DNA from: Escherichia phage Ecwhy_1
Length of the DNA: 64,000 nucleotides
Reading direction: 5' to 3' (one strand)
Sequence record: MH791411.1
A model generated the notes under the pieces. The model worked only from the letters and a program-made list of their open reading frames with translations, ran no database searches and was not told the DNA's origin. The position numbers and the translations under genes are program-made. Positions 37,137-44,794 of this stretch are shown here, piece after piece. Numbering within the stretch: position 1 is the stretch's first letter; the number at the start of each line of letters is the position of its first letter.

Positions 37137-37691
37137 TTATAGTTTAATTACTTCTTGGATACCAGTATCCATTGCTTTCTTAGTGCGTGTATCAGAAACT
37201 ACTGTACATAAATGTTCAATATTTTCACTTGGGAATGTGTTAGTATCAAGAATTTTGGAGTTCCAGAAACCTTTACGGAACTTAGCATAATCAGTACACT
37301 GGTCAATTTTCATTTTCTGAAGATTGTTGAACTGTGTACGTCCTGACTCGATAGTTACCATAAGTTCTTGATAAATCTTAGGATCGAGATTAGGAACCTG
37401 TTGTTGAATCTGTGACATCACAAACTTCTGGTCAACACCTTCACGACCTTTAAAGTATGTTTCGATGGTTTCTTTCAATGCATCCTTATACTTATCAGAA
37501 ACTTGTACTTTTTCTTGAATGACAAGAGTGTATTTACTTAGTTGACTTTCTGATGCATCATAGTACTTTTTAATATTACCTTCAAATTCAACAGCACGGT
37601 CATGTGCATCTACATACATACTAACTGAACCAATTGCCATAAGACCGAATACAACAACAACACCAATCAATGCAATAATTTTACCATTCAT
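37137..37691 (-). CDS. membrane-anchored protein, possibly LemA-like
   Basis: Six-frame ORF, 184 aa; single N-terminal transmembrane helix then a helical domain; LemA assignment is a weak pattern match. Confidence 0.3.
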   Translation of the reverse strand: MNGKIIALIGVVVVFGLMAIGSVSMYVDAHDRAVEFEGNIKKYYDASESQLSKYTLVIQEKVQVSDKYKDALKETIETYFKGREGVDQKFVMSQIQQQVPNLDPKIYQELMVTIESGRTQFNNLQKMKIDQCTDYAKFRKGFWNSKILDTNTFPSENIEHLCTVVSDTRTKKAMDTGIQEVIKL

Positions 37692-38782
37692 AACTTGTTA
37701 TCCCTCATATAAAGGCCAATGAAAATAGATACAATCAGTAACAAAATAGAAGCACCGATGAGAACATCTTTACGTGGTTCCATTTTTACAGACAAGTACT
37801 CGAACTCTTTATTAGAGAGTCTTTCAAACTTTGTGTCAATATTATGCACTTCTTTGCTCAACAAGTCAAGAGTTAATTTTTCATTTAATGCATCCATTCG
37901 CATCTTAGCATGTAGTTCTTCGTTCTTCATGCCTTGTGCAAAGGAAGTGCTATCAAATTTAACAATCTTCCCATCATTATCAATTCCAAAGAACATAATA
38001 ACATCATTCTTCTTACCACCACGCCACGAAGCGAGTGTTGCCTCAACAAAATCTACGTTTTTATAATCATAAACCAAAACTTGGATGTTGACTTGTTTAC
38101 GTGCACCCATAGTTTTTAGTTCTTCACGCAGATACTCATCATAACCATCTACATTATAATTAGTAGTGTTGATTACATGGTGTGTTTTATAATAGTCTAC
38201 CACACTTGGGTATTCTGGTAATGTACTAAGATATTTCTCATCATACATTTCATGTAATTCACCAGGACTAAACAATGAGTTTTTATCAGCGAACAGATAG
38301 TTAATATAAGAACTTTCTGCGGCGGCATAATCCCCAATGTTAACCTGTTGCCAGCGGGGAGGGGTCATTGTACCCTGGCGGTTTACTCGCTCAATCTCAA
38401 ACTTCCCTACAGTACTTTTTACATACCAGTCAACTTCGTATGAATAATCAAATACCTTATAGGACTCACATTCACGATGGGATTTCCCCTTACTATCATA
38501 ACGAGTTCTGCATTTCTCGTGCCACGTGTAATGCTTACATGAGCTTGATTGTGTACAAAACTCCTTGTGATTATATTTGGATGTTACCTGCCCATTTAGA
38601 ATCTCTACATCGTACAATTGGCTGTAGTTGATTGCATATGAGATACCAAGCACAAGAGCAGCACCAACTATACAACAACCAATATGAATCAACAGTTCTT
38701 TAGTACTGATATGCTTATCATACATGTATTTCATAACAAATACAACGATAAGTGAAGGAATCAACAGAATAATAAAATTCAT
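37688..38782 (-). CDS. hypothetical membrane protein (N- and C-terminal transmembrane segments, Cys-rich)
   Basis: Six-frame ORF, 364 aa. Confidence 0.55.
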   Translation of the reverse strand: MNFIILLIPSLIVVFVMKYMYDKHISTKELLIHIGCCIVGAALVLGISYAINYSQLYDVEILNGQVTSKYNHKEFCTQSSSCKHYTWHEKCRTRYDSKGKSHRECESYKVFDYSYEVDWYVKSTVGKFEIERVNRQGTMTPPRWQQVNIGDYAAAESSYINYLFADKNSLFSPGELHEMYDEKYLSTLPEYPSVVDYYKTHHVINTTNYNVDGYDEYLREELKTMGARKQVNIQVLVYDYKNVDFVEATLASWRGGKKNDVIMFFGIDNDGKIVKFDSTSFAQGMKNEELHAKMRMDALNEKLTLDLLSKEVHNIDTKFERLSNKEFEYLSVKMEPRKDVLIGASILLLIVSIFIGLYMRDNKL

Positions 38783-38785
38783 GTA

Positions 38786-39475
38786 TTAGTCCAGTTTAAG
38801 TTTATTGAGACAATAGGAGATTTGGATAGCTTCACGTGCTGCATCATACAGAGGGTGATGTAATTCCAAACCATTAATACCACATTTTTCTGCATACTTC
38901 ACGAATTTAGCTAACTGCACTGACACAATCTCATCCATTTCGGTGCGAGCTTCTTCATTCAATAAACGCTTCAGGGTTCGTGCGTTTTCAGGAGCATCAT
39001 ATTTCCACAAATCACCAACATTCAATAGTTTTAAGTGATTAGCTTGTAAAATACTACAGTCGAAGTTGCAGCCATTTCCCCAAATTGAATGTTCAACCTC
39101 TTTACCATAACAATCAAAACGGATATCTTTCCAGAAATCGACAATACCATTAGAAGTAAAGATTTGTTTGGATTTACCATTAGGACCGTACAATTCTGGT
39201 GCAACAAGTGCCATAGTACTGGCAACTTCAGCATATGCATTAGGATATTCCTTCTGACATGTATTCATCCAGAAATCCATTGCACCTGCATCTGATTTCA
39301 GCCCAGCGTTGACTTGTGCTTGGTATGGTAACTTAACATATACAAATTGTCTGATATCATGTTCAGGTTTACTTGGAACAACTACTGCTGCATAATTTGG
39401 AATAATAATATCATAACCAGAGTTTTCAGGAGTACCGAGAGCTTCGATATCAACACTAACATGACGGCGTTTCAT
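38786..39475 (-). CDS. DEDDh-type 3'-5' exonuclease (DexA-like)
   Basis: Exo I-like VSVDIEALGT and Exo III-like HHPLYDAAREA; size (229 aa) close to T4 exonuclease A. Confidence 0.55.
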   Translation of the reverse strand: MKRRHVSVDIEALGTPENSGYDIIIPNYAAVVVPSKPEHDIRQFVYVKLPYQAQVNAGLKSDAGAMDFWMNTCQKEYPNAYAEVASTMALVAPELYGPNGKSKQIFTSNGIVDFWKDIRFDCYGKEVEHSIWGNGCNFDCSILQANHLKLLNVGDLWKYDAPENARTLKRLLNEEARTEMDEIVSVQLAKFVKYAEKCGINGLELHHPLYDAAREAIQISYCLNKLKLD

Positions 39476-39556
39476 ATTTCGTTCCTTATCTGTATATTAA
39501 AAAAGAGTGCGTTTCAATAAGAACATTATATTGAAAACGCCCTCTTGTGTCAACTA

Positions 39557-40699
39557 TTACTTGTTAGCTTTTTCAGCAATTTCACGAAGAGTATCTTCGA
39601 GTTCATGAGAGAGTTTTGCGATTTCAATCTTAGCACGCTCACGCTCTTCTTTACCTTTCTTCTCTTCAATCAGTACTGCTTCGATGCTATCGATCATTGT
39701 TTTGTGTACATTACGCAATGTTTTAATATCCACGATACCACGATTATTTGCTTTAGCAGCATCCAACATGTTAGTTGCTACCATTTTAGAGTTTACTTCG
39801 AGTAAACGGTTAGTTTCATTGTCAATCAGATTACCCAACTCATTGTCTTTACGTTGACGTTCGGAAATCAACTGTTCAGCCAATTGTGATTTCCATGCTG
39901 GAATAACAACTGATTTCAAATCCTCAAACTTAGAAACAGTGTTGAGGTTTACTTTCTTCATACTCATCAGGCGAGGACCGCTCAGTTCACACATCATGAT
40001 AAGACGACGAATCTTATCTTCCTGTTTAGAAAGAGCTTCACAAATCATCTTTTGCTCCTGGATTGCAAAAGAATCAACGTCAGGGTTCGCTTGCATTGCT
40101 ACCAATTCAGCATCTTGTGCTTTGGTAACTTCTTCCAACTCAACTAACGTATCACGCAGTTCAAAGAGATAGTTTTTGTTTTCGTTGTAAGCAGTGTCTA
40201 GCCATGCACATTCCCCATGCTGGCGGTTAATACCAACCTGAAGAGTGTTCATGATTTCATCAATTTGTTCTTTACTGTTTTTGTACTGATCGCCAACTTT
40301 CTGTTTAGCATTAACAAAAAGTTTTTTGACCCAGCCTACGATTGATTTATCATCCTGTAGACTATCAATATCAACTGCACGAGTCAATGTCAAGATAGTA
40401 GTAATAGACTTACCGAATTCGGTATTATCATCAGTGACGTTAACTTTTGACATGATTTCATCAGCCAAACGTCCTACACCTGCCCCAGCGGTGGTTCCGA
40501 TGGTATTAATATTCTGCACAGTTAACGCCATACTGTTGCCTTTAGTATCTTTCAGTACTGGAAGTGACTTGGACTGTTGTTCGAAGATATCAGTTGCGTC
40601 AATTGTGTGTGCTGCTGTTTTGGTAGTACGTTTGGCAGTTTTGGTTGCTTTGGCTTGTTTAACTGTTGCTTTTTTCGGATTGATTTCTTTCTCGGACAT
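39557..40699 (-). CDS. TelA / YaaN-like protein (toxic anion resistance family)
   Basis: C-terminal NRGIVDIKTLRNVHKTMIDSIEAV block resembles the conserved TelA region as recalled; long helical protein. Start moved from 40774 to the Met at 40699, which has a GAGGA RBS and lies downstream of the promoter. Confidence 0.45.
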   Translation of the reverse strand: MSEKEINPKKATVKQAKATKTAKRTTKTAAHTIDATDIFEQQSKSLPVLKDTKGNSMALTVQNINTIGTTAGAGVGRLADEIMSKVNVTDDNTEFGKSITTILTLTRAVDIDSLQDDKSIVGWVKKLFVNAKQKVGDQYKNSKEQIDEIMNTLQVGINRQHGECAWLDTAYNENKNYLFELRDTLVELEEVTKAQDAELVAMQANPDVDSFAIQEQKMICEALSKQEDKIRRLIMMCELSGPRLMSMKKVNLNTVSKFEDLKSVVIPAWKSQLAEQLISERQRKDNELGNLIDNETNRLLEVNSKMVATNMLDAAKANNRGIVDIKTLRNVHKTMIDSIEAVLIEEKKGKEERERAKIEIAKLSHELEDTLREIAEKANK

Positions 40700-40745
40700 T
40701 GTGTATTCCTCAGTTAATTTAAGATAGTGTTGCTCAGTGATAAAC

Positions 40746-40774
40746 ATTCTACAGGCAACACTCAGTACTGTCAA
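40746..40774 (-). promoter_or_regulatory. sigma-70-type promoter (TTGACA, 17-nt spacer, TAGAAT)
   Basis: Minus-strand TTGACA-N17-TAGAAT; predicted start site about 40 nt upstream of the ATG at 40699. Confidence 0.5.
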
Positions 40775-40782
40775 CTACTTTT

Positions 40783-41910
40783 TTACTCTTTATTTCCATA
40801 CGCTAGGTTGCGAATGATATTGGCAGTATCTTCATCGACTGCTTTACCAGTTTGAGCTTGTAAACGACCTATAATCAATGGGATAGTGATAGTTTGAATG
40901 TCAATCATTCGGCTCATATCAATCTGATACTGCTTACTAACACCAACAATACTAGTTTCAGTCATTGCTGTTGAAATACCCATTTTCATAATACGTTCAA
41001 GCGTTAGTTCATATTCAAATGGATCTTCCAAACGACGAATTGCATATTCACACCCAATCTTACCATACTCAAGTTCATTTTTGATTTCACGAACTTCCTC
41101 ACGAATTTCAGTGAATAAAGACGTAATACCACTAAACTTGTTAGTATCGTACTTCACGGCCTCATTCAATGCTTTCATTACTTTTGGTAAATCAGATGGT
41201 TGAACTTTGATATCTGCTTTCCCAAACAACTTCTGTGCAAAGGTAGGCTTCAACGGGAATAACTTTTCCAGTGCTGTTGTAAGGTTACCCATTAATAAAC
41301 GGATATAATCACTGTGTTGTTGTAGTGCTGCGTTCAAATCCAATTGTCGCTCAGAGATCTTCTGAATCTTCATACCAACTTCTTGTGCACATACTGGGAG
41401 GTTAACATACCAATCCAGTACTTTTACCGAATCTTTTTTAATTGTATCTGGGAATTCCATCCAACGTTCAATGTCAGCAACCATATCACATTCAGGATCG
41501 ATAGGTTTCTTCTTAAGAACAATAGGAGCCGGAACTTCTGGTGAAGTAGCTACTGCTGCCATGTTTGGACGAAGTTTGCCTTCCTTCCAGTCTCGGTACT
41601 CCTTCTCTAACGGAGGAATTGGGAGATCTGGAACGATTCTCACATTTGAGAAATGAATTTTATCTTTCATCAAATCCATTACCTTCAAACGGCGATTATC
41701 AAAATAGATCTCGTCGAGTGAAAGTGAACGGGTGTCGAAATGTGGATTTCCCAATGAATCGTATGTTCTGTCCACAACAATGGTATACATATATTTTCGA
41801 TTCGATGAACGATCATACTGTTTTAACAGTGAGTTAAGAACGTAGTTGAAGTTAAATTCTTTGATTTCAACTTCTTTGCCGTTGTCAATGAAAAAATATT
41901 TTCCTTTCAT
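40783..41910 (-). CDS. hypothetical protein
   Basis: Six-frame ORF, 375 aa. Confidence 0.55.
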   Translation of the reverse strand: MKGKYFFIDNGKEVEIKEFNFNYVLNSLLKQYDRSSNRKYMYTIVVDRTYDSLGNPHFDTRSLSLDEIYFDNRRLKVMDLMKDKIHFSNVRIVPDLPIPPLEKEYRDWKEGKLRPNMAAVATSPEVPAPIVLKKKPIDPECDMVADIERWMEFPDTIKKDSVKVLDWYVNLPVCAQEVGMKIQKISERQLDLNAALQQHSDYIRLLMGNLTTALEKLFPLKPTFAQKLFGKADIKVQPSDLPKVMKALNEAVKYDTNKFSGITSLFTEIREEVREIKNELEYGKIGCEYAIRRLEDPFEYELTLERIMKMGISTAMTETSIVGVSKQYQIDMSRMIDIQTITIPLIIGRLQAQTGKAVDEDTANIIRNLAYGNKE

Positions 41911-42009
41911 TACTAACCTCTTAATTAATTAAAATTGATACGATACGTACATTCTACATACACACGATGTATTTGTCAAACCATTTTTTAAAGAAAAAAA
42001 GGACGCACC

Positions 42010-42828
42010 TTAGTGCATCCTTTTGTTACTCTTGTCCTTGTACCACACAAATGTTTTTACTGGTGGGTACTTTTCATTCTTTGGTGGTTCCGGCATATCA
42101 TACACAGTTGCATTTCTGAATTTTAAAATGTATGAATCCATTAAACGAATTATACAATAGTTCATGCACTTTTGTGCACGTTCTTTCCAAAAATGTTTAT
42201 ATGGTTCTGGACACCCAAGATAATCCAATTTGTACATACCCATAGCAGCTTGCATAAAGCGTTGGGCAGAGAACTTACGCTTGTCTACCTTACTAGCTCG
42301 ATGCTGGTCACATGTCCAACTAGAGATACCAGGGAGATGACAGAATAAATCAAAACTCACCATACTATCAAAGTACTTGTTATGACCGTTCAACTCTCCA
42401 TAAAATACCGCTTCGGAAACAGTTTCATATAGTGAGTAATTTGTATGTATATGTTCATTGTCAAATATAGCTTTTAGATCTTTGTAAGTTTCTGGTACTG
42501 GTGGCTCTGGTAACACTTCACCGAACGTCTCTAAGCACCAAATCTTCCACAAGCCTTTCGTAAATTTTACTTCAAGTTCTTTATCGCTGTCAATATAAAA
42601 AGTTTTCTCATTGATAAAAACTTTTCGTGCCATGTATGCTTTGAATACCGCATCAGGGTCGATATCTTCACGTTTGATATCGTCCCATCCTTTACCGATT
42701 CGAGAAATTTCGAATCGTCTCATATACATTCTACATGCCAAATCTTTAGTTGTACTACGATGATACTTGTCGTCTTGGTGAAGTTTGGTAGTCTCATGGA
42801 GAGATTTAAGCATGTTTAAAATTCTCAT
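42010..42828 (-). CDS. hypothetical protein
   Basis: Six-frame ORF, 272 aa. Confidence 0.55.
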   Translation of the reverse strand: MRILNMLKSLHETTKLHQDDKYHRSTTKDLACRMYMRRFEISRIGKGWDDIKREDIDPDAVFKAYMARKVFINEKTFYIDSDKELEVKFTKGLWKIWCLETFGEVLPEPPVPETYKDLKAIFDNEHIHTNYSLYETVSEAVFYGELNGHNKYFDSMVSFDLFCHLPGISSWTCDQHRASKVDKRKFSAQRFMQAAMGMYKLDYLGCPEPYKHFWKERAQKCMNYCIIRLMDSYILKFRNATVYDMPEPPKNEKYPPVKTFVWYKDKSNKRMH

Positions 42829-44167: not shown

Positions 44168-44794
44168 TTATTGGTAATATTTCGACAGTACTGAATAGAT
44201 TTTTAAACGTAGTTCATCCCAGTTGTTAACATAGTCATACCCATAACCATTTTTATACATATGATTGTGGGACGCTCGCATCATAACTGATGGGATACCC
44301 AATTCCATTGATGTTTCAATATTATTGATATAATCATCAATCATCAGTTTTACGTCATATCGTTCTTTTAATTCTACTAGTGCTTCATGCTTAGATTCAT
44401 TCATTTCAACAATGATGATTTCATCAAAACATGTCTCACCAAATACATGCATAAGATTAGTATTGCGAAGTACCTCGCTATAACCTTTCTTACCACACTT
44501 AGTCAGTACTATGAATTTTTCCTTGTAAAAACGATCACGCAGTTCATGCATAATACTTACAGTGTTAGTTTCTACAGGTTTTAGTAATCCAAACATATAC
44601 GAACGTTGATTGAATTCAGTAATGATCTCTTGAACTTTTTCTCGTGAAACACCAAACCATTCAGATAAATCGTATGCGAGTGGGTATGGTGTTGTTGGGT
44701 TGATATCATATTGGAGTTTTGCGTATTCTCCTAATGAACCAATGTGATCTAGTAGTACTTCATCACAGTCGAATACAATACAACGGTCTTTCAT
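44168..44794 (-). CDS. HAD-superfamily hydrolase (possible 5'(3')-deoxyribonucleotidase)
   Basis: Motif I IVFDCDEVLLDH (DxDxV), Lys in LTKCGKKGY, motif IV-like KLMIDDYINN. Confidence 0.5.
   Translation of the reverse strand: MKDRCIVFDCDEVLLDHIGSLGEYAKLQYDINPTTPYPLAYDLSEWFGVSREKVQEIITEFNQRSYMFGLLKPVETNTVSIMHELRDRFYKEKFIVLTKCGKKGYSEVLRNTNLMHVFGETCFDEIIIVEMNESKHEALVELKERYDVKLMIDDYINNIETSMELGIPSVMMRASHNHMYKNGYGYDYVNNWDELRLKIYSVLSKYYQ

Follow-up and report, generated by a model that had tools for sequence, protein, structure and literature searches.

A 64,000-nucleotide stretch of DNA from Escherichia phage Ecwhy_1 (sequence record MH791411.1), which we refer to as the window, carries on its minus strand a gene of the TelA/KlaB family (39557..40699), directly preceded by a gene of the same strand that is labelled 'hypothetical' in nearly every record examined (40783..41910). 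We describe here these two genes as a pair. The upstream gene, which we call the partner, belongs to a small family whose members directly precede TelA in phages and phage-like contigs of widely differing kinds, and it appears to share with TelA a transcription unit that has an additional internal promoter. Furthermore, judging from profile comparisons, it looks like a diverged TelA relative that accompanies the phage TelA. Taking jointly the identity of TelA, its translation start, the layout of the unit, the pairing and the probable paralogy of the partner, we assign to this reading a probability of about 0.85.

The source of the window is a jumbo coliphage of the RaK2/121Q type. Its DNA is 99.1-99.5% identical to that of the Escherichia phages fEgEco12, EC.P1, WPEC5, WPEC3 and vB_Ec-M-J, and about 80% identical to that of the Asteriusvirus group (121Q, PBECO4 and slurp01), all of them jumbo myoviruses of 320-386 kb; the value for fEgEco12 is 99.5%. 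TelA of 121Q, PBECO4, slurp01 and RaK2 (Asteriusvirus and Alcyoneusvirus), and g431 of fEgEco12, are copies of this gene at the corresponding locus, flanked by the same genes. The window protein is 99.7-100% identical to those of EC.P1 and TH47, 86-87% identical to those of the 121Q group and 53.5% identical to that of RaK2, and nothing of substance differs from these relatives. GenBank records of near-identical phages already contain the TelA gene with this start and this family assignment, the labels toxic anion resistance or tellurite resistance protein being found, with the same ATG, in fEgEco12, 121Q, RaK2 and others. The presence of TelA in jumbo phages was noted in 2016 (PMC5114366) and again in 2021, when it was described as a 'standalone TelA' (PMC7824862). 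What is added here concerns the partner. In the literature examined we found no annotation or mention of its family or of its KlaA-like character; Anantharaman et al. 2012 may cover it.

A reading of the sequence alone, made before any database search (the sequence-only reading), had proposed a TelA-family protein at this locus on the basis of a C-terminal block, NRGIVDIKTLRNVHKTMIDSIEAV, and the Pfam search that we ran bears out this assignment. The 380-residue product matches the Pfam TelA model PF05816 with E 1.4e-37 and 129.9 bits, well above the cut-off of 30, over model positions 14-331 of 332, and it matches phrog_5890, 'tellurite resistance', with E 1.5e-131. Furthermore, when RK2-type KlaB, the original TelA, was used as a tblastn query, the same open reading frame (ORF) was recovered with E 3e-19, the identity between the two proteins being about 23%. 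In an alignment of 34 TelA sequences, including both phage and cellular members, residues P242, P267, W269, R320, G321 and D324 are invariant. The proposed block is present in the translation and holds the last three of these residues, together with the near-invariant T327 and L328. Both family motifs, APQI...(I/V)P.WK and the C-terminal (E/N)RG(I/V)VD(I/V)xTL block, are kept in the window protein. These matches show that the ORF at 39557..40699, closed by a TAA codon at 39559..39557, encodes a genuine TelA/KlaB-family protein.

This protein is predicted to be soluble and almost all-helical, with a disordered basic N-terminal tail. No hydrophobic or membrane-spanning segment was detected in it, the maximum 19-residue hydropathy being 0.74. 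Residues 1-45 are basic, with a pI of 9.9, and the remainder of the chain is acidic. In the AlphaFold2 model residues 1-44 are disordered, the protein is helical from residue 61, and long helices span residues 123-204, 210-318 and 326-379. The model is of only moderate confidence (pLDDT 66) and its structural neighbours are generic helical bundles, both of which tell against our interpretation. The PDB was searched by sequence using TelA itself as well as profiles of TelA and of the partner; the output was coiled-coil noise only, haemagglutinin HA2 for example, and no TelA-family member found a matching solved structure in this way. NCBIfam gave no match for TelA or its neighbours.

The partner, a protein of 375 residues assigned to phrog_13312, was characterized by family search, structural model and profile comparison. 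Its structural model is confident (pLDDT 86.7) and contains an N-terminal alpha/beta domain, at about residues 1-110, and a helical domain, at about residues 160-375. An exhaustive profile search among 1.84 billion representatives yielded only 32 relatives, in which no Pfam domain was found; 13 of them are full-length, and about 15 are shorter and match just the helical C-terminal part. The order partner-TelA is kept in five jumbo-phage genera, and adjacency was also checked in eight non-jumbo loci among the 32 relatives; in all contigs examined the partner directly adjoins TelA. The helical part of the partner matches the gene directly upstream of TelA in KP13-16, an unrelated Klebsiella phage of 137 kb, with an hhalign probability of 97.9% and E 5.9e-13, and a plain tblastn search in the reverse direction recovers the jumbo-phage partners with E values of 6e-11 to 1e-6. 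In six distant metagenomic members (P0118, P0121, P0123, P0124, P0128 and P0130) the next gene is without exception a Pfam TelA, located 5-95 nt downstream, and in phage phiKp34 the partner-TelA pair gp134-gp135 is bracketed by annotated terminators. A locus search of viral contigs with three distant partner members gave no match. The partner was further compared with the genes that precede TelA in Phapecoctavirus J-01, ESCO37 and Caulobacter phage RB23, and proved unrelated to them.

In smaller and metagenomic phages the partner family accounts for the unnamed gene that separates TerD from TelA in clusters of the order TerD-TerD-x-TelA-TerF-TerC, as seen in phiKp34 gp134 (locus L023, 5001-5879) and in five further loci (L016, L018, L020, L021 and L022). 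TerD lies just upstream of the partner in five of the six distant metagenomic contigs, and TerF-like and TerC genes lie downstream in two of the six. The published description of phiKp34 names terC, terF, terD and telA and leaves gp134 unnamed (PMC8386662), and that of ΦPsa374 lists gp11, gp12, gp13 and gp15 and skips gp14 (PMC9796965). In one metagenomic contig (L019, 2117-2932) the pair comes directly after genes for a sigma-70-family factor and gyrase B, which suggests another large phage carrying the pair without TerD.

The helical domain of the partner is probably a diverged paralogue of TelA lacking the TelA C-terminal segment. When a broad partner alignment of 27 sequences was compared with the TelA alignment, hhalign gave a probability of 71% and E 3.6e-5 across 200 collinear columns, which run up to a V-x-[IV]-P motif common to both; reversed-sequence controls gave E values of 0.026 and 0.079, with scores of 21-25 vs 45. 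The broad partner profile also matches RK2-type KlaA, with a probability of 86% and E 4.7e-6, and more weakly the KlaA of IncHI2 plasmids. KlaA is by Pfam a truncated TelA (E 1.7e-10, model positions 40-247 of 332), and homology between KlaA and KlaB has been reported (PMC5696584). Moreover, a Foldseek search of viral models with the partner returned phage TelA after the partner's own family, with a probability of 0.96 and E 0.026.

Alternatively, the partner could be an unrelated helical neighbour, and its likeness to TelA and KlaA could be coiled-coil noise. A number of results weigh in this direction and against paralogy. The Pfam TelA model has no match to the partner at E <= 0.1, and the narrow partner profile compared with TelA is not significant (probability 0.6%), significance being reached only after distant partner homologues were added. 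The Foldseek TM-scores between the partner and TelA proteins are low, about 0.3. The hhalign probabilities on which paralogy rests are moderate (71-86%), and they were obtained between helical, coiled-coil-prone proteins. On the other hand, noise would not readily account for the distance between the broad-profile match, collinear up to the shared motif, and its reversed controls, nor for the independent match to KlaA, nor for the position of the partner next to TelA in every contig examined. We consequently regard an unrelated neighbour as the less probable explanation, one to be taken seriously and yet doubtful. The functional pairing of the two genes would stand even if their homology failed.

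A shorter TelA paralogue, as the phage partner probably is, directly precedes a full-length TelA in the kilA operon of the IncP plasmids RK2/RP4, KlaA-KlaB(TelA)-KlaC, which is present in IncHI2 plasmids too, and KlaA, like the phage partner, is without the C-terminal TelA segment. The phage pair differs from this operon in the extra N-terminal alpha/beta domain of the partner and in the internal promoter that separates the two phage genes, whereas the Kla genes are closely spaced. The same pair in the same order is found in the phiKp34/KP13-16-like Stephanstirmvirinae and in the metagenomic Ter clusters (TerD-TerD-partner-TelA-TerF-TerC), but the window has it without TerD, TerC or TerF within 64 kb, and the jumbo-clade partner is longer than the Ter-cluster partner by about 80-140 N-terminal residues. 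In the Firmicutes XpaC-TelA (YaaN) operon, which responds to envelope stress, a small conserved gene likewise lies directly before TelA, the identity between the window TelA and the Firmicutes TelA being at most 27%; the partner was tried as XpaC (PF10112) and rejected, with an hhalign probability of 0.2-0.3%.

These parallels have a limit that also tells against our interpretation: tblastn queries with KlaC (two types), TerD, TerC-like proteins and XpaC gave no match in the 64-kb window, and none of the seven neighbouring proteins scanned with Pfam has a Ter domain, in line with the description 'standalone TelA' (PMC7824862). The protein coded two genes downstream of TelA at 37688..38782, with two transmembrane segments, was considered as KlaC and rejected as unrelated by comparison. 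Because these components were not found in the window, the analogies to the Kla and Ter systems are incomplete, and the locus qualifies neither as a Ter system nor as a full Kla operon, but as a reduced pair of partner plus TelA. The odds seem to us even that the partner family is an unrecognised TelA paralogue truncated at the C-terminus, that it constitutes with TelA an obligatory two-protein, KlaA/KlaB-like core of phage Ter/Kla modules, and that RaK2-like phages kept only this core and added the clade-specific N-terminal alpha/beta domain, which could target or regulate the assembly.

All genes around the TelA locus are carried by the minus strand, and the signals that surround the pair follow the order terminator, promoter, partner, promoter, TelA, terminator. 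On its upstream side the two-gene unit is bounded by an intrinsic-terminator-like hairpin at the end of the preceding gene (41997..42024), with a 12-bp stem containing 5 GC pairs and followed by TTTCTTT. Next comes a sigma-70-type promoter before the partner gene (41951..41979), TTGACA-N17-TAGAAT, agreeing with the consensus at 11 of 12 positions, and promoters are present at the equivalent place in RaK2 and Hallingskeid. Between the partner gene and TelA no terminator was found in the window. Beyond TelA the unit is closed by an intrinsic terminator (39499..39546), in which a hairpin at 39546..39503 with a folding energy of -17.5 kcal/mol (z -4.2) is followed by the tract UUUUUU. A terminator is found at the same position in all five relatives compared, fEgEco12, 121Q, RaK2, Hallingskeid and fHe-Yen9-03; relative to fEgEco12 the stem in the window has one G/A mismatch (-17.5 vs -22.3 kcal/mol). 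The full layout is also present in Hallingskeid, and RaK2 has both promoters and the terminator after TelA, with none between partner and TelA. Because of this arrangement of terminators and promoters, we interpret partner and TelA as a single unit, inside which TelA has an additional promoter of its own.

The internal promoter, at 40746..40774, had been proposed in the sequence-only reading as TTGACA-N17-TAGAAT, and it is found as described: a -35 box at 40774..40769 and a -10 box at 40751..40746, separated by 17 nt, match the sigma-70 consensus at 11 of 12 positions. Its position is kept in four other genera, in which the spacer sequences have diverged, the boxes being TTGACT-17-TATAAT in 121Q, TTGACA-16-TATAAT in RaK2 and TTGACA-17-TATAAT in Hallingskeid (Erwinia) and fHe-Yen9-03 (Yersinia), and this conservation of position supports its interpretation as a promoter. 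No notable structure was found in the TelA 5' untranslated region (z +0.9). Sites of this kind are numerous in the genome, and the promoter is not a special feature of the TelA gene. Sites with at least 11 of 12 consensus positions number 33 on the minus (coding) strand of the window and 1 on the plus strand, against about 5.5 expected on both strands from first-order Markov simulations; a loose sigma-70 consensus scan of the window gave no enrichment (50 sites vs 52.5 expected). These sites occur roughly once per 2 kb, before replication, structural and functionally unlabelled genes alike. RpoD-like promoters have been described in the related phage CBB, where they were suspected to mark early genes (PMC5259590). 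Phage fEgEco12, however, encodes a sigma-70-family factor of its own (PMC13070987), and since the phage clade has its own sigma factor, a sigma-70-type promoter is no proof of early transcription driven by the host, a further point to be set against our interpretation. In the papers on fEgEco12, phAPEC6 and CBB we found neither a transcriptome of the jumbo-phage clade nor a statement specific to TelA.

The position of this promoter also bears on the translation start of TelA. The longest frame given by the ORF finder, 39557..40774 on the minus strand, would start with a TTG codon and encode 405 residues, and in fEgEco12, as in the window, it is the longest frame open at this locus. The TTG codon at 40774 is, however, the first three bases of the conserved TTGACA, so that the frame begins inside the promoter, as the sequence-only reading had pointed out, and more exactly in its -35 box, and no Shine-Dalgarno sequence precedes it. 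Moreover, the frame is closed by an in-frame stop upstream of the ATG in 121Q (1 codon away), RaK2 (8 codons), Hallingskeid (5) and fHe-Yen9-03 (5), which limits the N-terminal extension to fEgEco12-like genomes. The start favoured by the same reading, the methionine codon at 40699, is preceded by the Shine-Dalgarno sequence GAGGA (40711..40707, with a spacer of 7 nt), and AGGA or AAGGA is found in the same place in the relatives. The equivalent ATG is used in the deposited records of fEgEco12 g431 (1143 nt) and 121Q gp66 (1137 nt), and the N-terminus MSEKEINPK is common to about 50 clusters of phage homologues. Comparison with the relatives thus led us to reject the 405-residue protein, whose chance of being the real product we consider negligible, and places the translation start at ATG 40699. 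As this codon is the one already chosen in public annotations, the change of start repairs an artefact and merely undoes the longest-ORF convention.

Some features of the surrounding genes deserve description. The gene that follows TelA (38786-39475, minus strand) has a perfect TTGACA-N17-TATAAT promoter at 39525..39553, identified by the consensus scan and by comparison with relatives, whose -10 box (39530..39525) is enclosed by the TelA terminator hairpin within the segment 39499-39553 of the minus strand; the same is true of fEgEco12 and 121Q. Read-through transcripts would form the TelA hairpin, and transcripts started at the next-gene promoter would be without its 5' arm. The product of this gene is an Rv2179c-like 3'-5' exoribonuclease (Pfam E 4.5e-9; PHROG 255), for which the labels of the relatives disagree: peptidase, metallopeptidase, exonuclease and DNA polymerase III epsilon.

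Further along the minus strand, the gene at 37688-38782 codes for a protein of 364 residues with transmembrane segments at its termini, and it overlaps by 4 nt the gene at 37137-37691, whose product has 184 residues and an N-terminal membrane anchor. The latter protein is labelled 'LemA' in relatives, and Pfam LemA gave no match to it at E <= 0.1; RaK2 and 121Q mark it as a virion structural protein, and the search with PADLOC gave nothing but a weak match of this protein to a retron RT (E 0.0036). Four genes upstream of the partner-TelA pair, and separated from it by virion genes, the gene at 44168-44794 (minus strand) codes for a HAD-type phosphatase-like protein with an N-terminal FDCDEV motif, whose counterpart in 121Q, gp61, is labelled 'phosphoglycolate phosphatase'. 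The components of Ter systems listed in PMC7824862 include HAD phosphoesterases.

With regard to function, several observations on bacterial members of the family are informative. In B. subtilis, the envelope-stress regulon of sigma-W includes xpaC-yaaN and yceH (PMC3498285). In Listeria, a telA mutant shows increased sensitivity to nisin, according to Collins 2010 as cited in PMC12791056, and in E. faecium both the binding of daptomycin and the phospholipid domains are influenced by XpaC and TelA (PMC6811118). KlaABC, for its part, causes fertility inhibition of IncW plasmids in conjugation (PMC5696584). Together, this bacterial evidence points to an action at the cytoplasmic membrane. For the phages, Iyer et al. 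2021 have proposed that TelA of jumbo phages forms sub-membrane structures directed against superinfecting phages (PMC7824862). In the literature examined we found no published biochemical mechanism for TelA.

We tentatively suggest a membrane-proximal assembly that would serve envelope protection or the exclusion of competitor DNA, a proposal to which we give well under even odds. Partner and TelA might come together on the cytoplasmic side of the inner membrane. Over the course of a long infection the pair might then alter the behaviour of the envelope or membrane, so that an infected cell under membrane stress stays intact or the DNA of competing phages or plasmids is kept out.

The family name and the Pfam description of TelA would rather suggest an auxiliary gene by which the infected host gains resistance against tellurite or other toxic anions. 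In the same sense, a Listeria telA mutant is 2-fold more sensitive to tellurite in the work cited in PMC12791056, and resistance to xenobiotics in pseudolysogeny is a possibility raised by Iyer et al. (PMC7824862). Environmental tellurite is rare, however, and TelA is fixed and syntenic throughout a clade of jumbo phages that are virulent, which speaks for a role in the infection cycle. Resistance in RK2 is said, from the work of Walter and Taylor, to need a mutant klaC/telB, and no KlaC was found by tblastn in the 64 kb of the window. The authors of the ΦPsa374 study, for their part, state that its ter genes form no complete operon and that their role in infection is not established (PMC9796965). 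Tellurite resistance as such is thus an unlikely purpose, and we consider this explanation improbable. Hardly more probable is a role opposite to protection, in which the TelA pair would be a membrane-permeabilising device, kil or ClyA-like, for host killing, lysis timing or release. In our judgement a membrane-proximal role in protection or exclusion is more likely than either literal tellurite resistance or a pore-forming or kil function.

A conserved and unnamed partner, apparently a second subunit of the TelA type, provides a concrete handle on the function of TelA, and could help to explain the action of TelA and KlaAB during envelope stress, in the exclusion of phages and in the fertility inhibition of plasmids. 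If the two proteins do form a core, TelA would have to be studied as a heteromer, and the 'standalone TelA' of jumbo phages would represent a minimal system for TelA function.

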